Origin: a virus | Taxonomy: Duplodnaviria > Heunggongvirae > Uroviricota > Caudoviricetes | Length of the DNA: 49,037 bases | Virus record (IMG/VR): IMGVR_UViG_2778261529_000004 | Reading direction: 5' to 3' (one strand) | Part shown: positions 1,992 through 42,529 of the stretch, piece after piece | How the letters are laid out: every line of letters starts with the position of its first letter | Numbering within the stretch: the first letter of the stretch is position 1 | Made by a program: the position numbers and the translations under genes | The notes under the pieces: generated by a model | What the model was told of the DNA's origin: nothing | Database searches by the model: none | Seen by the model: the letters and a program-made list of their open reading frames with translations, nothing else

Positions 1992-3095
1992 TCAGGAGCC
2001 GATATATTCTGGTTTCATATCTGTCAGTGTCGTTTTATACGCCTCATATAATTCACCCAGATGTGGTCGTGCAGCATTCAGCGTATTTTCCAGAGCAGTA
2101 AATTTTTGTTCTGCTTCTGGATCACCTGATGAAGGCAGGTCATTTATCATCTTCTCGATACTGGCAATAGCATTGAGACGGTGATGACGCCGAACCACTT
2201 TTCCTTTAAGCTCGGCAAAGAATTCGCCGATCTGGTTTTTCTGATCCTCTATCTCTTGGCGTAATGCAGTGGTTTCCTCAGTCGTGGCCGCGCTTTCTAT
2301 ACGCTGCCGGAATTCATCAATCCACGCTTCGTCAATACGCTGTTCGATGGTTTCTGTTCGCTGCTCGCTTACCTCGCTATAATTCTGTACCGACACAGGA
2401 TTGATGATTTTTTCCTGTGGCTCTTCCAGTTCGTCCGGGGTATACACGCCCAGGATGACGTCAGGACAATAAAGGCGAGCCCAGTATTTCAACGCCAGAT
2501 AGGCGAGCTGTTGTTTCGGGTTTGAGGTCCATAAAGGAGAATTACGCGTAATCACGCTGGAAAGAAACACCGGTTCTCCCCAGGTAATCTCACTTTCACC
2601 GCGAAGAACTGCACCAACTCGAACTGAGAGACCATACTCATCTTCACTGGTCCAACATGGGATCGTTTCTTTTTTCTCATAGATTCCGCCTCCTTTGGCC
2701 GTTTTCTTAACGATCTCCACTCGGGTGCGAGAGCATTTCTCCCAGTCTCCCTCGTACTTGTAATGGAAGCGACCTACAATTGCACTTGAGCTAGAGATCA
2801 CAGCGTTAACCAGTTGTGCTTCATAACCCAGAACTCCGTTTACCAGGTGTGTTTTCTGAGCCACAGCGTAGGGGTTCATGCCCCATTGCATAGCTTGCAT
2901 GATGATTGCCATGCAGTCGGCAGGATTTCCGCGAAGGTGATCGGGAACTGTGACGGTGGCCTGTGCCATCAACCCGGCTACTGCCTGAAGTTGCGTCAAC
3001 GCCTGAACGTTAAAAATAGTGTTACTGGCAGAAATGGTATTTGGTGTCTGCTCTGTCGTGATGATATTGGTATTTTGCATGGTCAGGTTCTCCAT
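1992..3095 (-). CDS. recT: RecT/Red-beta family single-strand annealing protein, 367 aa
   Basis: Motifs resembling lambda Bet/RecT (QWGMNPY... and SNPKQQLAYLALKYWARLY); immediately downstream of and overlapping a RecE-like exonuclease gene. Confidence 0.7.
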   Translation of the reverse strand: MENLTMQNTNIITTEQTPNTISASNTIFNVQALTQLQAVAGLMAQATVTVPDHLRGNPADCMAIIMQAMQWGMNPYAVAQKTHLVNGVLGYEAQLVNAVISSSSAIVGRFHYKYEGDWEKCSRTRVEIVKKTAKGGGIYEKKETIPCWTSEDEYGLSVRVGAVLRGESEITWGEPVFLSSVITRNSPLWTSNPKQQLAYLALKYWARLYCPDVILGVYTPDELEEPQEKIINPVSVQNYSEVSEQRTETIEQRIDEAWIDEFRQRIESAATTEETTALRQEIEDQKNQIGEFFAELKGKVVRRHHRLNAIASIEKMINDLPSSGDPEAEQKFTALENTLNAARPHLGELYEAYKTTLTDMKPEYIGS

Positions 3096-6000
3096 TAAGC
3101 CAGATGCAGTGCTTCAAGACGACGAAGATCAAAGTCGTTTAATTCGTCGGTATAACTTTCGGTAATCGGTGCTGGCCAGTTGTTTGTCTCTAGAGCTTCG
3201 TTTATCTGGCGTAGCGTCCGGCGATATTCCTGTCGACCAAGTTCAAGGAGTTCCTGCGAGGCTTCCACGACTGCCACCCAGTGATAGCCAGCATCTTTGT
3301 TGACGAAGATCCAGAAAAATTTGTCCAGGTTTGCCACATCGCAATACATTGCGGCGCTGAGGTGATAATCACGCTCAATAATTTCACGGTGCAGGCGATC
3401 TTTAAGTCGTTCCTGCCGCACATAACCGAGGCTGACTGACTTCACGTCAGCGCAAATGCTTTCGTATGGCAGCCGGATTTCGATATCAGGACGGACCCTG
3501 ATTTCCAGCCCGGTTTCTTCATCAAACCCGAAATAGCTGATTTCAGATTTGCGATCCGGGTGGTTGAGTAGCCTTGCTGCATCGGTATTGTTTTGCAGTG
3601 CCGCGTGAATATTTTTTGCCTGTTCATACATATCCGGACTGATAAACGTTTTCCCGGCGTTTTCTTCTTGCTGGCGTTTTTGCCAGTCCTCCAGTGTCAC
3701 CAGTTCCGGGCGAATTTTCCGTGCGATTTCGGTTAATTGCTCTTTTGTGCCACTGATGTTGTAAGGCAAAGATTTAGCACGTTCTTTTTTTGCCAGTTCT
3801 GGATCTACAGTTTCAATTTGATCCAGAAGCTGCTCCCGTGCTCCACTGGTTTTCAACAGAGGAGGGAGGCTTGCGTTGTATTCTTTAATACAGGCTTTCA
3901 TTGCTGATGCTGTGTGTTTTTCCCCCTCAGGAATACGCCGAAATTCCACCGGAAGCGAACCGTAAAGGATGCCTGTTTCTTCGGCCCCAGCACTTACAGA
4001 CAGTGGCTGTATAAGAGTGCTGTTGTAGCTTTCGATCCACTCTTTCATCTGCTCTGGTGTCATCAGTGCTGGCAGACTGGCATTGTGTTTTTTAATGATG
4101 GCGATCAGTTCGTTAGAAGTAGTAACCACATATTCAGGAACCGGTACCGGAATGGCATATTCATCTGCGAATTTATCCGTTTCCAGAACATAGCTGTGAA
4201 TGATCCGCCCACGCAGCAGTGCATCACTTTCCTCGTTCGGAATAGTTCCGGCAATGTGCCGCCCGTGGTAATACATCAGGCTGATACGGGCATCCTTCAG
4301 CATCGTGCTGCTTATTCCGTTGGCGGAGTGATAAACCTCGTTCGGGAGGTTTTCATAGCGGCCTGGCTCGAAATATGACGGCCACATGATTTCAGTTGCT
4401 ACAGGAGCTGACGCTTCGCCAGTTTCATCACTGCAATTGCGATGCGGATCGCTGTCAGCATTCTCATTGTGCTGATGTTCAGCGCCTTCCATTTCCTCCG
4501 GATCTTTTTCCAGAGATTCATCCAGATTTTCTTCATTAAATGTTTCCTGATACGTTGCGTCGCCCATCGCCGCGCCACAATCAGGGCAGTTGCCCCCACC
4601 GCTCTGACCGCAGGCGGTGCAGACTTTTTCCGGTTCTTGTTGCTCTTCTGGTTCAGGCTGTTTCGTTTCTGGCTCGTTTTGTTGCGTATTTGGGCTGTTT
4701 TGTTCCGCTTTCTTGTCGTTCTGTTCCGTTTCTTGCTGGTTCTGGTTCACAGAGTCGAGGGTTTCAATCCCCTTAACCCATTTCGGATCGTTCGGGTCGC
4801 TAATCCCTTCAACAAATTCTCCGCGAGAGGCAGCCAGTAATTTGTCTGCATCGACAGGATTTTTGGGCGGAATGTTTTTCCGGGCTTCATGGAGTTCTGC
4901 CCGCAGTTTCTGATATTTCGCATCAACAGAATTTACCTGTGACTGAGCATCCAGCGGCTGCGTGTTCTGATGATGTTCAGTTGCATTCGGTTCCACTGTT
5001 TCAGCCGTTGCCTGTTCATCTGCCATTGCGCCAGATGGTTGTGGTTTTTCTTCATCGTCCTGTTTTCCTTCTTCTGTTACTCGCTGCGGCATCGGGGCAG
5101 AGGAGCGACCGCAGGCAATATCCACGATTTCCGGATCAGGGTTGGCATGATCGGTTTCAGTCAGTACTTTGTTCAGATATTCAGTGACGTGTGCGGGGAT
5201 GACCTCGATCCCAATTGGTGCTTCTTTCACGGACGCAACCACGATGGCGCGGGAATAATCCAGCCCGCCAGGCATGGTGATGAATTTGTCGCGGAAAACA
5301 GAAAAGGGTGGTTTATTTTCAGCGATAATTTCCTCAATGCGTTTAGCGTGTGCCGGATGAAGGTTATAGATGTCCACGTCCATTGAACGGGCCAGTACGC
5401 CAGTGGCTACATCGCGCGCCAGTGACGTCAGATCGTGGACGAAACCTTCGCCGCGATCGGTGAGGTTCCCGCCGCCAGCATTAGCACCAGAAGCCGTGCG
5501 AGTGATGCGTGAAACACGATTCCCTTTTCGCCATTCTTTTGTCAGAAGACCGCGATCAATGTGTTCGGTATCCAGCCAGGCTGAAATGAAATTCTTAAAT
5601 TCATAGGGCTGATGTTTTTTCGTGATAGAGAACACTGCCTTAATTGCATCAGTCAGGCGGAGCAGGGCGGCATTATCCAGAGTTGTCGGTTCTGCCATGC
5701 TGCGTATGGCCAACAGCAGATTCTGGACATAGCTGTTTTCCTGATCCATCTCAAGAGCAGTAATGTGTTTGCGTTGTTCACGGGTGGCATGATGCAGGTA
5801 TTTCCGATCCCCGGCTGCATACGTAAAAATGTGCAGAAGACGCTGTGTGAACCGCAAAGTGGCTACAGAGACTTCGCAATCCTGGCAATCCTCCTGGGCG
5901 TCTGCCTGCGCGTTTTCTTCCTGGCCTCCCGCCAGTTCTTTGGTTTCTTGAGCATTATCCTGGTGGTGAACGTCGTCTGGCGCTGCTCCCGGTTTTAGTT

Positions 6001-6262
6001 CCCAGGTCATGGAGTCTTTGCTGAGTTGATAGCGTTCACTCCAGGTAAAATCGATCTCACCTTCAGGGGGAAGGTCATTAACGACAGGAAAATTCGTGGC
6101 AACAGCTTTAAAATAGCTGCTCAGTTTTTTACCTGACTTAACGATCAGGTAGTCCAGAGTGGCACAGGTCGATTCAAAATCGTCGCTTGCCCACAGGACG
6201 ACGTCAGGTTCACCGGATGATTTTTTCGCTTTCCGTAACAGGAAGAGTGGTTTTGTGCTCAT
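3095..6262 (-). CDS. recE: RecE-like exonuclease VIII (PD-(D/E)xK C-terminal domain), 1055 aa
   Basis: Large ORF with a long acidic/Q-rich low-complexity middle, an internal CxxC...CxxC cluster ([19 protein letters not shown]) and a C-terminal nuclease-like domain; paired with recT. Confidence 0.65.
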
Positions 6263-6361
6263 TGTTTTTTAACCTCAACTCAGATTAAAATTACTGCGAG
6301 TGATGAATTAATGTCCCAGGTTCTTCACTCAGGCCTGCACACTGTGCAGGCTTTCTTTTTT

Positions 6362-6637
6362 TCAGATTTCACCGTTTAATTTCATTGCGATCAGAGTTGC
6401 CAGAAATCCGGCTTTTTTTTCTGCGGGCAGATTCTTTCCGATGTGAACCAGGCACATTTTTGTGACACCTTCATCAAGTGTTTTTACGTTGCCTGATGGA
6501 CCATCGATATCAACCACAGTGAATGGGGTTTCTTTATTTTCTGTTTTAATTACGTAGCCAATGCGCTTTCCTTCCAGATTCACCTCGTGAACAATGTCAT
6601 CGGTAGTTACAACAGTGGCTTCATAATTGGTAATCAT
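6362..6637 (-). CDS. racC: RacC-like protein
   Basis: Translation from MITNYEATVVTTDDIVHEVNLEGKRIGYVIKTENKETPF... matches remembered Rac RacC; track ORF extends upstream to 6685. Confidence 0.6.
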   Translation of the reverse strand: MITNYEATVVTTDDIVHEVNLEGKRIGYVIKTENKETPFTVVDIDGPSGNVKTLDEGVTKMCLVHIGKNLPAEKKAGFLATLIAMKLNGEI

Positions 6638-6711
6638 GTTTTTCTCCTTAATTAAGGTTGAGCGAATCTCTACCATTTCTGGCATAAATTCAGTTTCGAA
6701 TAGTCAATTAA

Positions 6712-6882
6712 TTAAAGTTCGTGTGCCATCTGGTCTTTTTCGGCACAAGCTTCACTGCAATATTTTCTCGGTTCGTCTTTTGATAAAGTCCCGTGCATGA
6801 AGTGAAGCATTCTTTCAATAGCTTTGCTTTCTTCAACGTCTTTTTTGCAAAGGTGGTAAGCACATTTTATTTTCTTAGTCAT
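6712..6882 (-). CDS. ydaE: YdaE-like small zinc-binding protein, 56 aa
   Basis: Hand-translated ORF below the 60-aa track cut-off: [56 protein letters not shown]; start overlaps the kilR stop (TGATG). Confidence 0.5.
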   Translation of the reverse strand: MTKKIKCAYHLCKKDVEESKAIERMLHFMHGTLSKDEPRKYCSEACAEKDQMAHEL

Positions 6883-7103
6883 CACCATGACTCCGCCTTT
6901 ACAGGTAAACCATCACGACCGAGGAAGACTTTAATCATGCGGTCAGTAATGCATGTTTTTGTGGTCAGGTTACGAATATAAAGTTTTCGCTTTTTAATAT
7001 TGTTTGCCGAGGCAATATATGTCCGGCCTTCATGAAGAACATAGTCACCAGGAGTCACACACTGACGTGGTATTTCATCAGTTCCGAAGTGATGTGCAAT
7101 CAT
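6882..7103 (-). CDS. kilR: KilR-like cell-division inhibitor (host-killing protein of Rac)
   Basis: Translation [73 protein letters not shown] matches remembered KilR; track ORF starts 4 codons upstream. Confidence 0.65.
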
Positions 7104-7511
7104 AATTATCTCCATTTTTACAAATGAACTTTGTTGATGCGGTGCCTGGTGCCTCCAGGTGACGTTAACCAGTTAACAATTAACGCCGGATAATCCACCC
7201 ATAACACTGATGCTTTTAACTGTGCCGCGTGCGCTTAGCCGCATTCACCGCATCACAAAATTCACTTTAAAAAGGGGCGGCAGGGCAGCCACGGAGTAGA
7301 ACTGATGCCGCCAAAGACTACACACAGCAATGTCGTTATTTACAACCGGAGGCGCACTCCCACCATTTAAATTTAACAGACAAGACCGACTCTTTATGGA
7401 TATCGGAAATGCGCCTTCGTGTTGCGCCCGGTTTTATTTCACCACCTCCGGGCTTTGGTGGTTTCTGCTATACCCCTACAGCGAGAATATTGAATTAATC
7501 CAAATAATGGA

Positions 7512-8059: not shown

Positions 8060-8521
8060 CTACTGGTTACGTTTCTTTAGTGCCAGCATGTTCTCGAAGG
8101 CTTCCTCGTAGAGCTTGTTTAGTCCACGTAGCTGGTTAAGGAGTTTGGCTTTTTCTGACGCAGGTAGAATCTCGAAGAGGTTAAGTAACTCTGCCTGTTC
8201 TTCATTGACCAGCCTCCATCCTTTGCCTGAAAAACTATCATCATAAGTATCTGATGATCTTACATAATTCATTAAGTCTTTAAGGTCTTCTCGAATGTCC
8301 TCTGGTTTTACCTTTAACAGAACCGCAAATTTTAGCGCAGCGTCGGTATTTACCGGTATCTTGCCGTTCAGATACTGGCTAACGGTGCCTTGAGATTCGA
8401 ATCCCAACAACTCAGCCGCCAGCTCTTGAGTCAGCTTCAGCTCTTTTTTTCTTGCATTCCATGCGGCTTTTAAATTCTTGCTCGCTTCTGGAGTTGCAAT
8501 CACTTCGCGTGTTTTTTTCAT
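8060..8521 (-). CDS. racR: RacR-like prophage repressor (XRE-family HTH), 153 aa
   Basis: HTH segment LTQELAAELLGFESQGTVSQYLNGK; divergent from a Cro-like gene across an AT-rich intergenic region. Confidence 0.65.
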   Translation of the reverse strand: MKKTREVIATPEASKNLKAAWNARKKELKLTQELAAELLGFESQGTVSQYLNGKIPVNTDAALKFAVLLKVKPEDIREDLKDLMNYVRSSDTYDDSFSGKGWRLVNEEQAELLNLFEILPASEKAKLLNQLRGLNKLYEEAFENMLALKKRNQ

Positions 8522-12338: not shown

Positions 12339-12761
12339 ATGGCAAAAGTATTTACACAAGAAGAGCGGGAAAAAATTAAAGGGCAGGTGGTTGAACTCGT
12401 GCGCCAGAGCGGTCGTGAGACGTTACAGCAACTGGAAGCTAAAACAGGTGCGACAAGATATCTGATGAGCGTTCTTGCCAGAGAGCTGGTTGCCAGTGGC
12501 GATGTATACAACTCTGGCTATGGGTTATTTCCCTCTGAACAGGCTCGTAAGGATTGGCAAAACGCCCGCAAAAAACTATCCAGGGCAAAGGTGAAAAAAA
12601 CGGTTGTGGTTGATCCTGACCTTATCTGGTCATTACCAGACGGAGAAATACGCCGCTATGACAGGCGTCTGAATATAATCTGTAGCGAGTGCCGGCAGAG
12701 TGAGGTTATGCAGCGTGTGCTGGCGTTCTATCAGGGTAATTATCAGGAGGTGATGCTGTGA
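12339..12761 (+). CDS. Hypothetical protein, about 140 aa
   Basis: ATG (MAKVFT...) preceded by GGAGG; track ORF begins 5 codons upstream at a TTG. Confidence 0.45.
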   Translation: MAKVFTQEEREKIKGQVVELVRQSGRETLQQLEAKTGATRYLMSVLARELVASGDVYNSGYGLFPSEQARKDWQNARKKLSRAKVKKTVVVDPDLIWSLPDGEIRRYDRRLNIICSECRQSEVMQRVLAFYQGNYQEVML

Positions 12762-13231
12762 GTACACCGGTAACCATTCTTGATATGTGCTGTGGCAGCC
12801 GTATGTTCTGGTTCGATAAGAATGACGACCGGGCGATATTTAGCGATATCAGAAAGGAAGAGCACACATTGTGTGATGGACGATGCCTGATTATCAGTCC
12901 TGATCTGATAGCTGATTTTCGTGCACTACCATTTGCAGACGCATCTTTTTCGATGGTTATATTCGACCCTCCGCATCTTGAGCGTGTTGGTGATAACGCC
13001 TGGATGGGAAAGAAATATGGACGGCTGAATAAAGATACCTGGCGTGATGATTTGCGGCAGGGATTTAAAGAAGCCTTTCGTGTGTTGCGTCCATCCGGCG
13101 TTCTGATTTTTAAATGGAATGAAACGCAAATACCTGTTCGCCAGATATTGGTGCTGACCGACAGAAAACCTGTTATCGGTCAACGAACAGGAAAAAACGA
13201 TAAAACCCACTGGATTATTTTTATGAAATAG
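12758..13231 (+). CDS. Small phage Dam-like DNA N6-adenine methyltransferase (putative), 157 aa
   Basis: Motif-I-like LDMCCGSRMF and DPPY-like VIFDPPH in a short protein lacking an obvious target-recognition domain. Confidence 0.5.
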   Translation: MSTPVTILDMCCGSRMFWFDKNDDRAIFSDIRKEEHTLCDGRCLIISPDLIADFRALPFADASFSMVIFDPPHLERVGDNAWMGKKYGRLNKDTWRDDLRQGFKEAFRVLRPSGVLIFKWNETQIPVRQILVLTDRKPVIGQRTGKNDKTHWIIFMK

Positions 13232-13351
13232 GCATCCAGTGAGTAGGTTAGTAAGGTTACAGATACGTATATCTGAATAATTAAATTCAGTTCTGTAAAT
13301 AAAATTTAATCCTTAACCGGAGGGATTTCTGCACCCTCAAATAATCAGGAG

Positions 13352-13369
13352 GCCGCCCAAAAGGGCGGC
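13352..13369. terminator. GC hairpin between convergent genes (weak terminator candidate)
   Basis: GCCGCCC-AAAA-GGGCGGC stem-loop; no clear U-tract. Confidence 0.3.
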
Positions 13370-13380
13370 TGTTCCGCTGT

Positions 13381-13935
13381 TCAATTATCTAAAATTGTGC
13401 TAAATCTTTTTATTACCATTAAGAACGTTATAACAGTGATAAAAAAGGATGTATAGGCTAAAAAGCTAACAATATATGCAGGTGCGCGAAAATACCATTT
13501 CATTAAATCCACTGCATTGTCAGGCAGGAAATATATTATCACTGAAAATATAACCAATACTATTGAAGTTAATATTGCATAAGCGACGTTGTGGCATAAC
13601 TGCTCATATATGGTTTTGTTAGTGTTTAATGATATCAATTTGTCTCGGGATTTGTTTCCTTCAATTATGTCTGATATCTTAGTGATGGTTTTTTGTTTTT
13701 GTTCATAAATCATTATTACTGCACTCATTAATAGTGCTGTTGTAATAGCCCCGAAGTTAACAAAGACGGAAGCAATTGCCGGTTTCATTATTCCGTATGT
13801 CCAGCACAGAACGAAAGAAAGAGATAACGGAACAATAAAATGTACGATAATGTCGCTCATCAACATTGTTCCACGCTGATCTGACATTGTTTTGTAGTGT
13901 TTTATTATTACACCCAGTACATTTATTTTATTCAT
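13381..13935 (-). CDS. Small integral membrane protein with four predicted TM helices (candidate effector), 184 aa
   Basis: Four long hydrophobic segments (IIVHFIVPLSLSFVLCWTYGI, FGAITTALLMSAVIMIY, VAYAILTSIVLVIFSVIIYFL, YIVSFLAYTSFFITVITFLMVI); ATG overlaps the upstream stop (ATGA); markedly AT-rich. Confidence 0.7.
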   Translation of the reverse strand: MNKINVLGVIIKHYKTMSDQRGTMLMSDIIVHFIVPLSLSFVLCWTYGIMKPAIASVFVNFGAITTALLMSAVIMIYEQKQKTITKISDIIEGNKSRDKLISLNTNKTIYEQLCHNVAYAILTSIVLVIFSVIIYFLPDNAVDLMKWYFRAPAYIVSFLAYTSFFITVITFLMVIKRFSTILDN

Positions 13936-14864
13936 ATAATCACCCCTTTGTTTCCGCTATGCAGTTCTAACAATATATCATTAGAAAGGTTTTTTATCGT
14001 GTCATGAAGTGCTGTTAGATCAGGTATGCCTGTTAATGGGTCGATTTTTAGATCATTATCATCTAACTCTGCGGAAATTCCTTTTTTTAGTATGGTATCA
14101 TAATTGAAAACGACAGTCCGACTGCCGAGTTGTAAGCTTACTTTTATTGCATCACATTTATCTTCAATAATCTCAATGATGTTTCCTATATTCTTGTTTC
14201 TTAAATCTCTGAAACTTCCGAACATGCCATCGTTTGCTTTTATTATTAAGTCTGTCTTGATGTTTGTTTTGTTTTGACCAAAGGAATCAGCAATGTCTTT
14301 TGGTGCTTTATATCCTTGAGCCTTAATTTGTTTTAATTCGGAATTGAGAATATATTGAGGGATTTTCTTATGATGTAATGGATTGATTCTTGCTTCGAGT
14401 TGAAATTTGTTTTTTAGATATTCAGTGATAGAATCAGAAAGGACACCTCGAGCAGAAATATTATCGCAAGAGTGGAATGCAATAATTCCTTCTTCAAGGG
14501 CGTCTGGTAGGTATATTAAAATATAACGTTCTTTGAGTGTTACATCATAAGCAGTTGTCCTATAGTGGATTTTTTTGAGTTTTACATCTTTTATTTCACT
14601 GCTTTCTCCATATTTCCCAACTTTTATATAACCATATATAATTTTTTTTGAGTTATCAAAGTGAAGTTTAGCGTGTTGTTCCAGAGATATTTTAGTTTTG
14701 GATACGCCAAACTCGATGGGGGTGTTTTTATATAGAGTAAAATAATCAACAAAAAGTTCATATGCCGTTTTTTTATTACTTAAACCCAATTCATTAAGTT
14801 TTTTGCTGGCTCGACTGCCTTTATGGGTCAAGACGCGGAATGAATAGAAATTAACGCTGTGCAT
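13932..14864 (-). CDS. Hypothetical soluble protein (candidate sensor), 310 aa
   Basis: Lys/Ile/Asn-rich AT-rich ORF, first gene of a two-gene minus-strand operon inside a plus-strand gene block; RBS AAGGA upstream of ATG. Confidence 0.7.
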   Translation of the reverse strand: MHSVNFYSFRVLTHKGSRASKKLNELGLSNKKTAYELFVDYFTLYKNTPIEFGVSKTKISLEQHAKLHFDNSKKIIYGYIKVGKYGESSEIKDVKLKKIHYRTTAYDVTLKERYILIYLPDALEEGIIAFHSCDNISARGVLSDSITEYLKNKFQLEARINPLHHKKIPQYILNSELKQIKAQGYKAPKDIADSFGQNKTNIKTDLIIKANDGMFGSFRDLRNKNIGNIIEIIEDKCDAIKVSLQLGSRTVVFNYDTILKKGISAELDDNDLKIDPLTGIPDLTALHDTIKNLSNDILLELHSGNKGVII

Positions 14865-14882
14865 GAAAAGTCCTTTTGAACA

Positions 14883-14915
14883 TATAGGAATATACTAGAA
14901 CATAAATAGATGCAA
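14883..14915 (-). promoter_or_regulatory. Candidate sigma70-like promoter for the two-gene cassette
   Basis: On the minus strand TTGCAT, about 15 nt spacer, TATATT, then RBS and ATG; weak and not validated. Confidence 0.25.
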
Positions 14916-15267
14916 TGCATAAAGGAAAAGCTACCGCAGGGCGAACTCACCCACCGATAGCTCTTAACTGGTTGTTTGTAAAAGATAATACATAAATTGG
15001 GGGCTGTGTAAAGAGGTAAGCATCGTCAGGGCAAGGGAGATGTGTTAGGCGATATTGGTAAAATTTTCGTTGAGGATAAAAACGGTTTGCGGGAAAAGGA
15101 GAGTTAAGTAGAATTGCTGCGGGTGCTTGAGGCTATCTGCCTCGGGCATGAACACCAACGGCAGATAGATAAAAGCCCCACCCGACTATAAATCGAAGTG
15201 AGGCCCCTATATGCTCGTCACATATAGATTGCCTCTTACTGACCGAAAGGTCAAGGAGAAGCAGGCT

Positions 15268-24596: not shown

Positions 24597-24614
24597 AAAA
24601 TCAGGATATTTTTG

Positions 24615-26051
24615 ATGGCAGAGATCGAGATTACTGGCGGCCTCGGTTCAGCACTGATGCATATTCTTGAGGCTGAAGAAATTCAGCCGGGAACCGACAT
24701 TGGCTATGAATTGTGTAAGCAGCTGTGGCAATTCCATCCTCTGGGCGGAAAACTTGTCGAAAAACCCATACTGATGGCGATGTGTAAGCCGCGCCAGTAT
24801 AACGTGGAGACAGACCCTGACGAGAGGGTTGTGAGGCGTTTTCAGGAGGTATGGGAACGCATGAAGGTCAACGAGAAGATTAAAAATCTGTTTTTTCTGT
24901 CTCGTTGCTACGGTGCTGCAGCGATCGGCGTGGGCACCGACAGCGTTCCATGTCGTGAACCGCTTCCGACGTTCGGACTGACAGAAGATGACGTGTATAT
25001 CAACGCGTGGGACCCGTTGAACGCTTCCGGTTCGATGGTGACTGACCAGAACCCCAACAGCCCGTTTTTCCAGGAAGCCAATAAAAAACTGAAGATTGGT
25101 GGGAAAGACTGGCATCCGTCACGCACACTGAAAATCTTCAACGGCACACCGATTTATCTGGAGTTTCAGAGTTCATCGTTCGGATTCACCGGACGTAGTG
25201 TGTTTCAGCGCGTTCTTTATTCCCTGAAATCCTATATCAACACGATGGAGGCGAATGATCTCGTCAGCCAGAAGGCGGGCGTACTGGTAGCTAAAGTTGT
25301 GCAGTACGGTTCGAAACTTGACGGGATCATGGCTGCCGCCACGGGACGAAAAAGGGAAAACGTCAAAGAGGCAAAAAATAAAGGTGTGCTTAGTATCGGG
25401 AAGGATGAGGACGTTACCTCGCTAAATCTACAAAACATCGATGGTGCGCTAAACGCTGCACGCGACAATATTATTTCCGATATTGCGTCAGGGAGTGACG
25501 TTCCGGCGATCCTCATCAAAGAGGAAGCCTTTTCGAATGGTTTCGGTGAGGGGACCGAAGATTCGAAAGCCATCAGCCAGTATATCGATGGTGTACGCCA
25601 GCAGATTGAACCCGTGATGGATTATTTCGAACGCCTGGTGCAGTACATCGCCTGGAACGAGGAATTTTATCAGTCGCTGAAAAATGATTACCCGGACATC
25701 ATAACTGATGACTATAAAACCACGTTTTACCAGTGGCGACGTGAATTTACCGCGACATGGCAGGAGCTGGTGGAGGAGTCGCCGGACAAACGCCGGGAAA
25801 GCGACAGTAAAGTGATTCAACAGGCGATAGCACTTTTCTCTGCCGTGTCGCCACAGGTTGATCCTGAAAACCGTGCCGCCGTCACTGAATGGCTGGCAAG
25901 CCTTGTTAATGCCACGCAAACCTATGGCGAAGCTCCACTCATCATTGATGTGGACGCGCTGGCGAATTATGAACCACCGAAGCAGGAGACGCCTGATGGC
26001 AATTTCCAGCCGGGCGGTGAGGAAGAAGAAACGGATCAGGACGCTATATGA
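24615..26051 (+). CDS. Portal protein (putative), about 478 aa
   Basis: Large ORF directly after the terminase with an acidic C-terminus; call is positional. Confidence 0.6.
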   Translation: MAEIEITGGLGSALMHILEAEEIQPGTDIGYELCKQLWQFHPLGGKLVEKPILMAMCKPRQYNVETDPDERVVRRFQEVWERMKVNEKIKNLFFLSRCYGAAAIGVGTDSVPCREPLPTFGLTEDDVYINAWDPLNASGSMVTDQNPNSPFFQEANKKLKIGGKDWHPSRTLKIFNGTPIYLEFQSSSFGFTGRSVFQRVLYSLKSYINTMEANDLVSQKAGVLVAKVVQYGSKLDGIMAAATGRKRENVKEAKNKGVLSIGKDEDVTSLNLQNIDGALNAARDNIISDIASGSDVPAILIKEEAFSNGFGEGTEDSKAISQYIDGVRQQIEPVMDYFERLVQYIAWNEEFYQSLKNDYPDIITDDYKTTFYQWRREFTATWQELVEESPDKRRESDSKVIQQAIALFSAVSPQVDPENRAAVTEWLASLVNATQTYGEAPLIIDVDALANYEPPKQETPDGNFQPGGEEEETDQDAI

Positions 26052-37601: not shown

Positions 37602-38608
37602 TGCGTTATTACCGACTGGAAATTATTAATCCTAAAACAGGCAAGCCGCCAGTGGATAGCAATGGAAAACCCATTGGACCTTTTGATACCAATGAAACAC
37701 CAGGATGTGGGTTGCATGTTGAATTTGACTTTGAAGTAACCGGCCTGGATGTAGTCTGTTCGGGTACGATGCTGACGATCTATGGATTACCAATTGACAT
37801 GCTGAAGCAAAGCGTAAGTTTGCAGGGTTGTCTGGTACGTATGAAAGCAGGCTTTGTTCAGGGGTTACCACTGGCAAATAAGGATCAACAGGGGGAGGTA
37901 ATCTATGGTGAAATTTATCTGGCCTATGCCAACTGGATCGGCACGAACCAGACTTTAAACCTGGTAATAAATCCAAGCATACGCAAAACCGATGACGGTA
38001 ACCCTTTTTCAATTGAGGGGCAGGGGGAAGCAGGGGAAAGGGTGGGTGATGTTTTAGTCCGCGCTTTGCAAAAAGCATATCCCAATAAACTTATTGATTG
38101 CACAGTCAGCGACAACCTGGTTTTGCCAGAGCCGTGGACGGGCAAATATACGGAGATTGGTTCGCTGGCTATGGTCGTAAAAAACGCCTCTATTGCGATG
38201 ATGCGTAATGAAAGGTATAGCGGAATCGCCATCAGTATTCTTTCCGACAGAATACGAATCTACGATAACGCATCGGCAAAGTGGGGTGAGCCAAAAACAA
38301 TTCATGCCCATGAACTGGTCGGGCAGCCGACATGGATAGCGCCGTTTACCGTCAGTTTCAAATGCCCTATGAGAGGCGATATCAGATGTGGTGATGTGGT
38401 TAAACTGCCGGAGGGGCTATATTCTGGCGCTGCGTCGATTGTGATGGCTAATACAACGGTACCCAGCGTTATCGCAAAAAATTCGACCACGTTCACCGGG
38501 AAATTTCTTGTGAAATCAGTCAGACACATTGGTTCGTATCTGACAGCCGATGGCGATGCCTGGGTGACGGTATTTGAGGCATATGCTGAGAACTGGGCGA
38601 GGGTGTAA
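37601..38608 (+). CDS. Baseplate hub-like protein (putative), 335 aa
   Basis: Position preceding the spike-like gene. Confidence 0.4.
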   Translation: MRYYRLEIINPKTGKPPVDSNGKPIGPFDTNETPGCGLHVEFDFEVTGLDVVCSGTMLTIYGLPIDMLKQSVSLQGCLVRMKAGFVQGLPLANKDQQGEVIYGEIYLAYANWIGTNQTLNLVINPSIRKTDDGNPFSIEGQGEAGERVGDVLVRALQKAYPNKLIDCTVSDNLVLPEPWTGKYTEIGSLAMVVKNASIAMMRNERYSGIAISILSDRIRIYDNASAKWGEPKTIHAHELVGQPTWIAPFTVSFKCPMRGDIRCGDVVKLPEGLYSGAASIVMANTTVPSVIAKNSTTFTGKFLVKSVRHIGSYLTADGDAWVTVFEAYAENWARV

Positions 38609-39321
38609 TGTCAAACGCTCAAAAATTACCGTTTCTCCGAACACTGTCGGAGATGATGACCAGTTCTGGTAACCAGCAAGCCGAGCTTAAAGGCCGCGAA
38701 TTGCCCTGCCATGTTGTCGATATCTGCGGGCAAATAGTGACAGTTCAGTTTGATATGCTGCCGGAGGGGATCAACTTCCCGCAGATAACAATCCCTGTCG
38801 CCACATTCCCGTATATCCGTTACCCGATACAGCCGGGCGATCGAGGAGTAACAATTGCCGCTGATGTATCACTGCGCGGTGTGTCCGGATTGGGAACCGG
38901 TATGGCAACGCTTTCTTACTCGATGTCGCTCACTCCCCTGTTTTTCGTGCCATTGGCAAACAAGGAGTGGTCCGACGAAGATCCGCAAAAAATCGTTTTG
39001 TACGGTCCGGATGGCGCGATCCTCAAAACAGAGGACGGCAGTAGCTCGGTAATGGTGGCTCTGGAAGAAATCAGGCAAAAGTCGAAAGCTGTTTACCTCG
39101 AGGCCGAAGATATTTTCCTGAACGGGAAAATTCACCTCAATGGACCGATCGTCCAGGACAAAGCCCAGATGAAGGATACAACCGCTTCGCTGATTGGTCC
39201 TCTTAATGTCGAGATGGATGCAGTTATCAACGGCGTGAGCGTCAGCGGCCACAGCCACGATGTGACTGGTGTTCAAAGCGGCAGCAGCACGATTACGTCG
39301 AAGAAACCAAATCCTGGTTAA
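38608..39321 (+). CDS. Baseplate central spike protein (gpV/Mu gp45-like, putative), 237 aa
   Basis: C-terminal HxH motif (SGHSHDVTG) as in iron-binding spike tips; position upstream of the J-like gene. Confidence 0.45.
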   Translation: MSNAQKLPFLRTLSEMMTSSGNQQAELKGRELPCHVVDICGQIVTVQFDMLPEGINFPQITIPVATFPYIRYPIQPGDRGVTIAADVSLRGVSGLGTGMATLSYSMSLTPLFFVPLANKEWSDEDPQKIVLYGPDGAILKTEDGSSSVMVALEEIRQKSKAVYLEAEDIFLNGKIHLNGPIVQDKAQMKDTTASLIGPLNVEMDAVINGVSVSGHSHDVTGVQSGSSTITSKKPNPG

Positions 39322-39356
39322 TACCGGTTCATTTCACTTTAAATTCTGACCATAAA

Positions 39357-39391
39357 ACGAAAACCCCGACTGTTGGCCCAGTCGGGGTTTT
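39357..39391. terminator. Strong hairpin terminator after the spike gene (possibly bidirectional)
   Basis: A-rich run, CCCCGACTG-TTGGCC-CAGTCGGGG hairpin, then TTTT. Confidence 0.55.
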
Positions 39392-39403
39392 CTGTTTCTC
39401 ACC

Positions 39404-39607
39404 TTGAATACGCAAGGGATGATTACGTATGTTTGGAGGTCTTCCGTGATTAATTTTAGCGGAGGAGACTGGATTGTGAAAGCCTTAAAATTAGTGGCAA
39501 AAAGCAATACCTTACGACGCATGTATTACACCGCTGCACTCGTAGCTTTAGCATTTGCCTTTTCACCAGTACTGACAGAGTTAGTTAAAGTGATGGGGGC
39601 ACGATGA
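39404..39607 (+). CDS. Small hypothetical protein with hydrophobic C-terminal segment
   Basis: Track ORF starting at TTG; alternative internal starts exist. Start is uncertain. Confidence 0.3.
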   Translation: MNTQGMITYVWRSSVINFSGGDWIVKALKLVAKSNTLRRMYYTAALVALAFAFSPVLTELVKVMGAR

Positions 39608-39951
39608 GAACATGGGGCCGCGTCACCGACGCGAACGGCAACAAAAAATGGGTTGCAGTAGAATCTGACGCCAACGGTGATTTCTCCTACGGCTGGCTGA
39701 CGACGCTCATTCAGACGTTAAAGCTGGGATTGGGGGAGTCGCCGTTTTACGCGAATTACGGTATTCCTGCACAGCAGTGCATCGTGCAGCAGATTTACCC
39801 AGACTACTATGTGAACATGGTTCAGCAACAGTTTGCTGGGTATTTTGCATCACTGGCAATTTCAAAGGTAGATGGAGCAGATAACCCCACCTATAACATC
39901 GATGTTGTGTTTTTTAATGGGACCAGTTACCGGACGCAGGTGCCGGTATGA
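39604..39951 (+). CDS. Hypothetical protein in the gpW/gp25-like position, 115 aa
   Basis: Start overlaps the upstream stop (ATGA); size and position match a baseplate wedge protein, but no motif recognised. Confidence 0.35.
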   Translation: MRTWGRVTDANGNKKWVAVESDANGDFSYGWLTTLIQTLKLGLGESPFYANYGIPAQQCIVQQIYPDYYVNMVQQQFAGYFASLAISKVDGADNPTYNIDVVFFNGTSYRTQVPV

Positions 39952-40100
39952 ATCACAGTTTTATGATAAAACTTTTACCTTGGTTTGGAGTGCTGTAGAG
40001 AGATATTTTAGGGGGGCGAGTAATTTTCTAAGCTGGAGCATATTGACATATATTATTTCGGATTTGCAAAATACATATTGTTACCATGGAGGAGACAAGC

Positions 40101-41261
40101 ATGGAAAATTTTGCAAATAAGTTAAAAATACACACAGAGCATGTTGCAAAAATGGGGGTGTTTTGTACAACTGAAGAAACGACAAAACAAGCACTCATTA
40201 TGCCATTACTAGATATTCTTGGTTTTACTCCGTATGATCCAAGAAAAGTCAAAGCTGAGTATAGTGCTGACTTCCCCGGGGTTAAGGCTAATGAACGGGT
40301 TGATTACGCTTTATTTTGTCATGATGTTCCTGTGATGTTCATTGAGGCGAAATCGTTTTCAGAACAAATTGATAATCACTGCCCACAGCTATCAAGATAT
40401 TTTAATTCAACACCGGAAGTTACTATATCAGCCATTACAAATGGTGTTGAATGGCGTTTTTTTACGGATTTGAAACAAAAAAACATAATGGATTCAACGC
40501 CGTTTTTAAAAATAAGAATGGATTCTCTAACTCACTCCGATATTACACAATTATTTCGTTTTCGTTATGATAAATTCAAACCAGAGGCTTTACGGACACT
40601 GGCTGAAGAAAGTGTTTATTTGAATTCATTTACTAAAACAATCAGTTCTAGTCTTCGTGAAGTTGATCTGGAGTTTGTTCGATATGTTGCTAGTCGTTCA
40701 AATATTGAGAGACAACTTAATCAGAGATTTCTTGAGTTCGTGACTCCATTAGTTAAACAGGCCGTTGAGCGCGCTGTTAGCGCAATGGTGGTTTCCGGGC
40801 TATCTACACAACCGGTAGAGCAAACTAAAGAAAATGATGCAACGGATACACAAGTTAATAACGCCATTGTTGATGAAGAAAACCCCAACATAATAACCAC
40901 AGCCAAAGAATTGGAGCTATTTGAAAGGGTAAAACAAATCATACAAACAGAAGATAATATAGAATATAAAGATACTGAGTCATATTTTGGTGTGCTATTG
41001 AATGGTAAAACTAATAGATGGCTGTTAAGATTTTATGATAAAAAATCTTCATTTATAACTTTACCTATTTCGCTTAGTGAAGTTCAGTTGAATGAAATAA
41101 GACGAGCTCGACTTGATACGGATGGTAAAAGGATACATATAACTAATCCGGAAGATATACTTCGCATATCTGGTTTGATTCTGGATTCATACGAGTATGT
41201 TAAAAATGATGATAATTTCCGCCGAGGGTCCAGAGTGAGCAGTTTAGAAGAGGTTGAATAA
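40101..41261 (+). CDS. PD-(D/E)xK nuclease-fold protein with HsdR-N-like domain (moron; candidate defence nuclease), about 386 aa
   Basis: N-terminal segment ETTKQALIMPLLDILGF ... VDYALFCHDVPVMFIEAKS ... ISAITNGVEWRFF matches the type I restriction R-subunit N-terminal nuclease-domain pattern (D...E.K, TNG..W); RBS GGAGG upstream of ATG; AT-rich; terminators on both sides. Confidence 0.6.
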   Translation: MENFANKLKIHTEHVAKMGVFCTTEETTKQALIMPLLDILGFTPYDPRKVKAEYSADFPGVKANERVDYALFCHDVPVMFIEAKSFSEQIDNHCPQLSRYFNSTPEVTISAITNGVEWRFFTDLKQKNIMDSTPFLKIRMDSLTHSDITQLFRFRYDKFKPEALRTLAEESVYLNSFTKTISSSLREVDLEFVRYVASRSNIERQLNQRFLEFVTPLVKQAVERAVSAMVVSGLSTQPVEQTKENDATDTQVNNAIVDEENPNIITTAKELELFERVKQIIQTEDNIEYKDTESYFGVLLNGKTNRWLLRFYDKKSSFITLPISLSEVQLNEIRRARLDTDGKRIHITNPEDILRISGLILDSYEYVKNDDNFRRGSRVSSLEEVE

Positions 41262-41264
41262 GTA

Positions 41265-41290
41265 AAAAACCCGCGAAAGCGGGTTTTTTT
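41265..41290 (+). terminator. Intrinsic terminator after the nuclease gene
   Basis: AAAAAACCCGCGAAAGCGGGTTTTTTT, a perfect hairpin with flanking A and T runs. Confidence 0.7.
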
Positions 41291-41302
41291 AATGGAGTAA
41301 AT

Positions 41303-42529
41303 ATGTCAGAAATACCAATTACTATGACCAGTGCGGGGGCGCAGCCTACGCCACCCAATGATTTGCTTGCAAATCTTATCATCAGAGTTGCTGAAAAAGT
41401 ACCTGGATATACAGCCAACCTTCCGGCGGGGCTTATTACTGACCTTGCCAGCACGGCAGTCGGGGCGCTGGCATTAATAGACCAGGCGCGGGTGGACCTT
41501 ATTAACTCCGTAAGCCCATACGGCGCAAATATTCCGTTACTGATGCAACTCGGAAACATTTATGGAGCACAGAAGGGATTAAGTACAAATACGGCGGTAT
41601 ACGTGGTATTTGAGGCGTTGCCGGGGTTTGGTATCCCTAAAGGATTTGTTGTCGGTGATGGCAACTACCAGTATGCAGTTTCCCGCGATACGGTGGTGCC
41701 GGAAAGTGGGCAGACTGAACCAGTCTACTGTGTGGCCACAACGTCAGGCTCATGGGCTGTACCGGAAGGGACTGTGACGCAGGTTATTACCTCAGTACCA
41801 AAAGACCAGCCTGTAAAATGCACGAACCTTACCGCAGGGATGCCAGGTCAGGAGGCGCAGACGTGGGCATCTTACCGCGCCGAAGTCATGGAGTCCGGTA
41901 TGTTTGGTGTGCAGGGAACACCGGATTGCTATAAAGCGATGCTCAAATCAGTAAGCGGTGTGCGAGAAAACCTGATTTCTTTCCGGCAGTCGTCGCTGGG
42001 GAAATGGGTTGCGGTTGTTGGTGGCGGTGATCCGTATGATGTGGCTTATGCGATTTACAAATCTGTACCGGATATTTCGAAACTGACCAACGATGTAAGC
42101 AATCCATCCGGTGCGGCAGTGGAAAAACGCACGGTTTCAATAACCGTTTCGCCGGACGTTTATCAGGTGCCGTTCGTTATCCCGTCATCACAAAACGTCA
42201 TGGTGCTAATCACCTGGAACATGGTGTCTGATGATTATGTTGATCCGGCGGGTATTGCTATGGCTGTGCAGCAAAACGTTGCTGATTACATCAATTCAAT
42301 TGAAGTCGGACACCCGATAAATCTTCTGCGTATCCAGGATATTTTTACCAGTTCTGTCAGGTTGCTGGTTGATGCGACGTTGATCTCAACAATCAGTGTG
42401 AGCATTGGCATTAATGGTCATATTGTTCTTCCGGCAAAAGACACAAGCCTGGTTTATGGCGATACCTATTCCTATTTTTCGACAGTGGCATCACAGGTTC
42501 AAGTTAACAAGTATGCAATATCTGACTGA
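41303..42529 (+). CDS. Baseplate J-like protein, 408 aa
   Basis: Size and position before I-like and fibre genes; Mu gp47/P2 gpJ-like context. Confidence 0.6.
   Translation: MSEIPITMTSAGAQPTPPNDLLANLIIRVAEKVPGYTANLPAGLITDLASTAVGALALIDQARVDLINSVSPYGANIPLLMQLGNIYGAQKGLSTNTAVYVVFEALPGFGIPKGFVVGDGNYQYAVSRDTVVPESGQTEPVYCVATTSGSWAVPEGTVTQVITSVPKDQPVKCTNLTAGMPGQEAQTWASYRAEVMESGMFGVQGTPDCYKAMLKSVSGVRENLISFRQSSLGKWVAVVGGGDPYDVAYAIYKSVPDISKLTNDVSNPSGAAVEKRTVSITVSPDVYQVPFVIPSSQNVMVLITWNMVSDDYVDPAGIAMAVQQNVADYINSIEVGHPINLLRIQDIFTSSVRLLVDATLISTISVSIGINGHIVLPAKDTSLVYGDTYSYFSTVASQVQVNKYAISD

Follow-up and report, generated by a model that had tools for sequence, protein, structure and literature searches.

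What does a gene for a restriction-type nuclease do between the tail genes of a prophage, and whom does it serve? The question is raised by the IMG/VR record IMGVR_UViG_2778261529_000004, a stretch of 49,037 nucleotides (referred to as the window) that corresponds to a Rac-like prophage of Escherichia coli, with IntR, XisR, RecET, KilR, a RacR-like repressor and replication genes followed by a myovirus-type late region. A first reading made from the letters alone (the sequence-only reading) had singled out an AT-rich gene in the baseplate region as a moron, with a nuclease pattern at the N-terminus of its product. Judging by comparison with related prophages, a self-contained moron acquired by horizontal transfer occupies 39963-41294, in a variable slot of the Rac-like prophage, and its single gene encodes an HsdR-type nuclease domain joined to a putative DNA-binding domain. 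From position and domain content, we infer that the product is probably a lysogen-expressed, single-gene, restriction-like defence nuclease.

The insert was delimited against two relatives, phage Rac-SA53 and the Actinobacillus phage vB_Apl-pPE4 record, to which the late region of the window is 93-96% identical. The DNA that was acquired, and the signals within it, are the following.

39963-41294, plus strand: cargo insert (moron) of ~1.33 kb with 35.7% GC, set by blastn breakpoints against Rac-SA53 and vB_Apl-pPE4 and by alignments of both junctions
40043-40072, plus strand: predicted sigma-70 promoter candidate, TTGACA-18 nt-CAAAAT, the best-scoring site of the region with 10/12 consensus matches
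40089-40095, plus strand: Shine-Dalgarno sequence GGAGGAG, read from the sequence, 5 nt before the ATG at 40101
40101-41261, plus strand (open frame from 40086; stop codon included): nuclease gene, 386 amino acids (aa), WP_000426902.1, PHROG 4225
41264-41290, plus strand: intrinsic terminator of the cargo gene, folding free energy (dG) -15.8, z -4.9, with a GAAA tetraloop and then a U run

The ATG at 40101 is the start used by RefSeq for the identical protein WP_000426902.1, a sequence found on at least 1000 contigs, and the open reading frame (ORF) matches PHROG 4225 ("endonuclease", PHROGs category DNA/RNA metabolism) over its full length at 4.5e-149. The G + C content is 0.356 in the ORF and 0.357 in the insert, compared with 0.47-0.49 in the flanking tail genes. 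The description of an AT-rich ORF of about 386 aa with its own GGAGG ribosome-binding site is thus borne out. Homology to Rac-SA53 and vB_Apl-pPE4 is lost just past the stop codon of a 115-aa tail-module gene, which forms the left edge of the slot, and resumes at about 41295, a few bases before the start of the baseplate J-like gene on its right edge. Between these edges lie the promoter-like site, the ribosome-binding site, the ORF and the downstream terminator; the latter stops 12 nt short of the baseplate-J start codon and, in the alignment, is not found at the same junction of Rac-SA53 and vB_Apl-pPE4.

The same junction is variable among close relatives. Neither Rac-SA53 nor vB_Apl-pPE4 has the nuclease gene, and both carry other cargo at this position. 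When 5426 complete E. coli genomes were surveyed with the two conserved flanks joined as the query, the tail module was found in ~100 genomes and the nuclease gene in only 25 of them; the other occupants, mostly on the opposite strand, were antA/AntB or Ant antirepressors, LprI-family genes, Rha, IS1 and hypothetical genes. The slot was never empty in the relatives examined and is thus a cargo-exchange site, not a site of simple insertion. The flanks of the carriers are 97.8-100% identical to the window, versus 91-96% in the other genomes, as would fit a single acquisition within one sub-lineage.

A copy of the ORF alone, 78% identical and without its flanks, is present in the Stx2 prophage of E. 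coli JNEC-KY177 (6002-7159 of that locus), where it lies between the Q antiterminator and a block of DNA methyltransferase, tRNA and stx2AB genes, on the strand opposite to its neighbours; in some Stx2 phages, then, this cargo gene adjoins the Shiga toxin locus. This copy, the copies behind the repressors of unrelated prophages (described below) and the foreign base composition all support the moron reading. Comparison with related prophages, which had been proposed as a check, shows about three quarters of the sister prophages without the nuclease and places the edges of the insert at 39963 and 41294; with 25 carriers among ~100 genomes, foreign G + C content, its own terminator and copies at other sites, the gene is not a constant structural component, and its designation as a moron stands. 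The moron concept for the lambdoid phages HK97 and HK022 is reportedly that of Juhala and Hendrix. The present locus resembles lambdoid morons: an extra gene, with a terminator of its own, a promoter-like site and a base composition unlike that around it, separates two genes that lie side by side in relatives. It differs from them in that each relative examined has some cargo in the slot. A cargo-exchange hot spot is thereby documented within the tail cluster of Rac-SA53-like prophages, and should the predicted defence role prove wrong, what remains is an ordinary moron that was rightly identified as one.

The protein itself divides into four parts, all encoded on the plus strand.

40101-40520, plus strand: aa 1-140, HsdR-type PD-(D/E)xK nuclease domain, from Pfam and conserved residues, with the key codons E25, D68 (40302-40304), E82 (40344-40346), K84 (40350-40352), Q96 (40386-40388) and Y100 (40398-40400)
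40521-40808, plus strand: aa 141-236, helical region in the AlphaFold2 (AF2) model, predicted local distance difference test (pLDDT) 55-83, highly conserved, with no Pfam family
40809-40874, plus strand: aa 237-258, acidic linker with predicted disorder, variable in length and sequence in the alignment of close homologues
40875-41216, plus strand: aa 259-372, C-terminal alpha/beta domain of double-wing / CyaY-like fold, a putative DNA-binding module

The N-terminal domain was matched by Pfam HSDR_N (PF04313; 5.1e-14, 53 bits, cut-off 25.1) and HSDR_N_2 (PF13588; 2.3e-9, 37.8 bits, cut-off 25), which together cover aa 25-128, and HSDR_N was also matched by all 40 diverse homologues searched. 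All of 33 homologues with 63-87% identity share D68, E82, K84, Q96 and Y100; among 40 homologues of 26-50% identity, E25, K29, D68, Y69, K84 and Y100 are still without exception, and at least 90% retain E82 and Q96. D68 lies within RVDYALF, and E82 and K84 within FIEAK. The segment Q96xxxY100 is the QxxxY motif of the RecB family and HsdR, which was shown to be important for cleavage in EcoR124I (PMC2475608). By residue conservation, the active site is complete (E25, D68, E82-x-K84, Q96xxxY100), and the domain has the restriction-endonuclease-like alpha/beta fold. The PD-(D/E)xK pattern that the sequence-only reading saw in the N-terminus, including its D and E.K, was therefore a correct call, with both families above their gathering thresholds. 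Neither of the two outcomes that would have refuted this reading, a gene always present as a structural component or a missing nuclease fold, was observed.

In the remainder of the protein, the same reading had recognised nothing, and at the level of profiles this is confirmed: Pfam searches of the middle and C-terminal parts at E-values up to 10 returned only noise, the YjbR family (PF04237) and DUF1801 were not matched, and searches of 40 diverse homologues revealed no C-terminal family. Searches of PDB sequences with the protein, the family profile and the profile of the C-terminal domain likewise gave chance-level matches only. Modelling now adds a fold. The AF2 model falls below pLDDT 50 for aa 225-254, while the C-terminal domain modelled alone reaches pLDDT 84 and a predicted template modelling score (pTM) of 0.75. 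The fold neighbours of this model are double-wing / CyaY-like domains, at identities of 7-13%: YdhG-like proteins (DUF1801, 9t2w), MmcQ/YjbR (PF04237; 2fki, 2a1v, 2kfp) and the C-terminal domain of T4 MotA (5jlt). According to PMC7641849, YjbR and the MotA C-terminal domain belong to the double-wing folds that bind DNA and are found in fusions with nucleases, although DNA binding has been demonstrated only for MotA among the domains named here. Conserved residues of the C-terminal domain are K290, D291, Y295, K303, R306, W307, R310 and R335. On the basis of the model, we regard this domain as a putative DNA binder; for the helical region at aa 141-236, a role as a spacer or in oligomerisation is our guess.

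RefSeq and UniRef name the protein "type I restriction endonuclease". This name is a domain-level mislabel: the match to the NCBIfam type I endonuclease equivalog reaches 19 bits against a cut-off of 729, Pfam detects only the N-terminal nuclease domain within the 386 aa and no superfamily 2 (SF2) helicase or translocase domain, and neither hsdM nor hsdS lies beside the gene, the neighbours of which are tail genes. The nearest relatives of the N-terminal domain are indeed the nuclease domains of HsdR (EcoR124I HsdR, 2w00; a Vibrio HsdR fragment, 3h1t; PF04313/PF13588), but this protein has no SF2 motor, no HsdM or HsdS and an unrelated C-terminal half, and measures 386 aa instead of ~1000, so that ATP-driven translocation and collision are not possible for it. 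In comparison with the N-terminal nuclease domains of type IIG and IIL enzymes (BpuSI, 3s1s; DrdV, 7lo5; MmeI-like enzymes), there is no fused methyltransferase or target-recognition domain, and recognition would fall to the double-wing domain. Solitary prophage-borne or type IV nucleases, such as McrA of prophage e14 and Mrr, as well as McrBC with its McrB-N reader, offer a further comparison. The likeness to type IV enzymes lies in the lack of a cognate methyltransferase in the window; to McrB-N there is only an indirect link in fold neighbourhood, via YjbR and YktB. The combination of an HsdR-type nuclease with a double-wing domain fits no described restriction class.

The family to which the protein belongs is large, with 1356 matches in 90% clusters and 3369 clusters at 50% identity. 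Its members, which include proteins named "prophage Lp2 protein 6", are mostly 345-410 aa long, align over their full length and are conserved across phyla. The genomic contexts of seven homologues were inspected, and a repressor gene was found directly upstream in six.

Citrobacter and Providencia homologues: downstream of a CI gene (HTH_3 plus Peptidase_S24), gap 10-22 bp
Salmonella and Enterobacter homologues: downstream of a helix-turn-helix (HTH) repressor divergent from cro, gap 32-40 bp
Salmonella Mu-like prophage homologue: downstream of a CI-like repressor, gap 250 bp
Yersinia myovirus homologue: downstream of an Arc/Mnt-like repressor, within a tail cluster, gap 37 bp
Gilliamella homologue: among housekeeping genes, with no phage context and no repressor gap

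A scan of IMG/VR with the alignment of close homologues retrieved 205 relatives, of which 54 retained loci are not of the window type. In 51 of these 54, a co-oriented ORF (at least 70 aa) ends 9-173 bp before the nuclease gene. These upstream ORFs fall into 17 distinct types, 15 of them with repressor domains; of the 17 types, 12 have Peptidase_S24, 12 HTH_3, 1 Arc and 2 a weak HTH match. A homologue of 35% identity was also found in a Firmicute-type prophage, in a lysogeny module that further contains an HTH gene, a CI-like gene and a serine integrase. No conserved partner gene emerged from the downstream neighbours, which vary between loci, and the gene is therefore a single-gene unit; the 110-aa ORFs that follow it in Salmonella and Providencia prophages have no assignable function, although they may be N-like.

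In phage lambda, rexAB are lysogen-expressed exclusion genes in the cI operon. Most homologues of the nuclease share this position, directly downstream of and co-oriented with the prophage repressor, and the position implies that they are co-expressed with the repressor in lysogens. The window copy does not share it, and the proteins are unrelated to RexAB, with a presumably unrelated mechanism (nuclease versus the membrane depolarisation of RexAB). A RexAB-type system is discussed in PMC12894663. The Yersinia case parallels the window, in that both concern tail-cluster sites associated with Arc/Mnt or Ant-type (immI-like) genes.

The DNA that surrounds the insert also bears on how the window copy would be expressed, and its features are as follows.

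38608-39321: spike-like gene (gpV/bppV-like), with a weak GpV apex motif; "phage baseplate protein" in RefSeq
39359-39392, both strands: bidirectional terminator hairpin after the spike-like gene, terminator-like on both strands and folded as 39355-39397
39404-39607, plus strand: small ORF of 67 aa with a hydrophobic stretch, taken from the ORF list and falling in the locally variable segment 39418-39589
39604-39951, plus strand: 115-aa tail-module gene (rac59-like), phrog_7986 at 1.6e-64 over its full length
41303-42529, plus strand: baseplate J-like gene, Pfam Baseplate_J at 1.1e-8 and phrog_6 baseplate wedge; right edge of the slot

The nuclease ORF does lie between the spike-like and J-like genes, as the sequence-only reading stated, but the gap holds three plus-strand ORFs and not one. 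The claim that the gene is bracketed by terminators survives in part. Both hairpins exist, and the downstream one belongs to the insert; the upstream one is a distant element of the phage backbone, ~700 bp from the nuclease gene with the ORFs 39404-39607 and 39604-39951 intervening. It folds with a dG of -26.8 on the plus strand and -29.9 on the minus strand (z about -6.3 to -6.4 versus shuffled controls), and because it is conserved in Rac-SA53 and vB_Apl-pPE4, both without the nuclease, it lies outside the insert; its stem there shows a compensatory change from A-U to G-C. In these relatives, the hairpin may also stop leftward transcription from minus-strand cargo. Late transcription must pass this hairpin (39359-39392) and the terminator 41264-41290 to reach J and the fibre genes, which implies that late transcription is terminator-resistant.

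The gene, the limits of the insert, the variable slot, the nuclease fold with its conserved residues, the C-terminal fold class and the repressor linkage of the homologues are observations. The model of function that can be built on them adds, as inference, that the promoter is used, that the gene is expressed in the lysogen, that the protein binds DNA and that it serves defence. In the lysogen, the nuclease gene would be transcribed from its own candidate promoter (40043-40072), the backbone hairpin would insulate it from the silent tail operon upstream, and the cargo terminator would stop the transcript ahead of gene J. The double-wing domain would bind DNA and the nuclease domain would cut it, requiring no ATP, motor or partner subunits. 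The target would be a superinfecting phage or other incoming DNA (phage, plasmid), with a logic like that of a type IIS or type IV restriction enzyme. Neither the scan of window ORFs nor the Prokaryotic Genome Annotation Pipeline (PGAP) annotation of the EC11 late region, which is 99% identical, revealed a methylase, and self DNA must therefore be spared in some other way. A DNA modification or a phage-specific feature might be recognised (type IV-like), a housekeeping host methylase might protect the chromosome, or infection might trigger activation; the type IV-like version of the model is doubtful at best.

Several observations weigh against a lysogen-expressed defence nuclease. A constitutive nuclease with no cognate methylase needs a mechanism for sparing self, and none was identified. 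The window copy is not itself behind a repressor, as the RacR-like repressor gene occupies 8060-8521 and is read from the opposite strand. The nuclease gene runs in the same direction as the tail operon, which makes expression by late read-through possible, and its promoter candidate is only a 10/12 consensus match with a weak -10 element. The Gilliamella homologue has neither phage nor repressor beside it. For DNA binding the argument is one of fold, at identities of 7-13%, and neither YjbR nor DUF1801 is linked to the domain by sequence. No model of PADLOC-DB v2.0.0 matches the nuclease protein or the products of its two small upstream neighbours, and the PADLOC models gave only weak, generic nuclease-domain matches (type IIG, Cas4, mad2) on the 40 distant homologues. 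Finally, no experimental report on the nuclease family was found in a literature search outside of which one key paper (Brenes and Laub 2025) remained.

An alternative is that the nuclease serves the phage itself, in lytic growth or in the control of lysogeny, and is expressed by read-through of the tail operon; it might degrade host DNA, act on recombination or replication intermediates, destroy a competing resident element or counter a host defence. The gene lies between the late genes and is co-directional with them, PHROGs places it in DNA/RNA metabolism as an "endonuclease", and the terminator-resistant late transcription suggested above would cover it too. However, the gene is dispensable, as about three quarters of the sister prophages do without it; it has its own ribosome-binding site, terminator and promoter-like site; and in 51 of the 54 other viral loci it follows a co-oriented, mostly repressor gene, that is, in an operon that is on in the lysogen and off in lytic growth. 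We thus consider a role for the phage unlikely. The gene might instead be a selfish or addictive element and not an enzyme that restricts invading DNA. It could encode a free-standing homing-type endonuclease that copies its gene into intergenic sites of related phages, or a nuclease with toxin-like action by which the prophage is stabilised or the cell killed (abortive infection). The sharp boundaries, exactly intergenic between conserved genes, the sharing of the ORF alone, without flanks, with the Stx2 prophage at 78% nucleotide identity and the solitary state of the gene, with no immunity or methylase partner, are in accord with this view. Against it, copies occur at many unrelated sites with unrelated flanks and thus have no common target site, and the slot receives cargo other than nucleases too, which fits a general recombination hot spot. 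In addition, the linkage to repressors of many types (17 upstream types) suggests that selection has acted on when the gene is expressed, not on a homing site, and the family is conserved at full length across phyla. A selfish element is accordingly a distinctly unlikely explanation in our estimation, with the reservation that its abortive-infection variant is not separable from the preferred hypothesis with the present data.

The names given by RefSeq and UniRef, together with the weak NCBIfam match to the type I endonuclease equivalog, would also suit a dead remnant of a type I R subunit with no function of its own. This explanation is highly improbable, and the conservation of the sequences already contradicts it: the 386-aa architecture, including a C-terminal domain that is not from HsdR, is conserved in thousands of sequences, the catalytic residues are invariant or nearly so, and an identical sequence occurs on at least 1000 contigs. 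Moreover, the NCBIfam score of 19 bits is far from the cut-off of 729, and there is neither a helicase domain in the protein nor hsdM or hsdS in the window. The explanation that we favour thus remains a restriction-like defence nuclease made in the lysogen.

A broader hypothesis can be offered tentatively, as a possibility that we would not yet expect to hold. The protein may represent a large family of single-polypeptide, ATP-independent, restriction-like enzymes, in which a double-wing reader directs the HsdR-type nuclease to modified or phage-specific DNA, and which is carried in the repressor operon from Proteobacteria to Firmicutes as a functional replacement of RexAB. If this were true, a widespread prophage immunity module would be missing from current defence catalogues, and the window would represent its capture in a second kind of cargo slot (antirepressor/immI-like, in the tail cluster).

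The family is already catalogued (PHROG 4225, RefSeq) but functionally uncharacterised. In the literature searched, PHROG 4225, WP_000426902 and WP_032188582 are unmentioned, and Rac-SA53 is named in a single paper, which does not concern the nuclease gene; the linkage to repressors was not found described in the literature and databases searched. The covered part of the DefensePredictor supplements has no entry for WP_000426902.1, and the DefensePredictor paper reports 13 new PD-(D/E)xK systems as validated, so that an earlier validation of this nuclease family is possible. If the prediction holds, a compact (1.2 kb) one-gene nuclease would join the prophage-encoded defences, and a function would be assigned to a very common protein, which goes under the wrong name of "type I restriction endonuclease" in the genomes of E. 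coli, Salmonella and many others. The design of recognition plus cleavage in one protein could reveal a new way of discriminating foreign from self DNA with no cognate methylase, and the repressor linkage (51/54 loci) provides a clear and cheap experimental entry point.

Some further observations concern the homologues. A Dam-like (MethyltransfD12) methylase lies near the nuclease gene in some prophages: in the Salmonella Mu-like prophage (6230-7000 of the locus) it is convergent with the gene at a distance of 63 bp, and a second case was found in two further loci (2529-3227); the association, which bears on the sparing of self DNA, is not general. When longer members of the family were scanned for fused domains, only one was found, a distant homologue of 509 aa with a partial TerD at the N-terminus of the nuclease. 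Since YjbR-type domains have been reported fused to TerB (PMC7641849), the family may by analogy be connected with stress or defence modules of the tellurite-resistance type.

The DNA on the left of the slot is mosaic as well. Homology to Rac-SA53 and vB_Apl-pPE4 is kept over 38600-39417, which includes the upstream hairpin, lost over 39418-39589 and regained over 39590-39962, with the 115-aa gene 94.6% identical to both at the nucleotide level. In relatives, the segment 39418-39589 is replaced by an unrelated hydrophobic ORF of 45 aa (rac58), and the O169:H41 carriers of the nuclease differ here too; by these alignments, it is a separate micro-mosaic that adjoins the main slot. The 67-aa ORF at 39404-39607 had no match in Pfam, PHROG or PADLOC. 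With regard to the relatives themselves, vB_Apl-pPE4 (PP818812.1) is attributed to Actinobacillus pleuropneumoniae, and its tail module is 95.6% identical to those of E. coli Rac-like prophages; judging by this identity, the host attribution of the record looks doubtful.

The late region of the window is 99.2% identical to that of a prophage of E. coli EC11, and two other loci of the window were compared with this prophage. A second AT-rich cargo region, with a G + C content of ~0.33, is located at 12752-15239 and contains two overlapping minus-strand ORFs, 13381-13935 (184 aa) and 13932-14864 (310 aa), neither of which had a Pfam or PADLOC match. In the corresponding slot, the EC11 prophage has genes for an ATP-dependent nuclease and a DNA cytosine methyltransferase as well as a hypothetical gene, and the region looks like another defence-type hot spot with a two-gene cargo. 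Just after the terminase genes, the window has an ORF of 479 aa (24612-26051), the EC11 counterpart of which is named "anti-CBASS protein Acb1 family protein" by PGAP, an unexpected name for what is normally the portal position.

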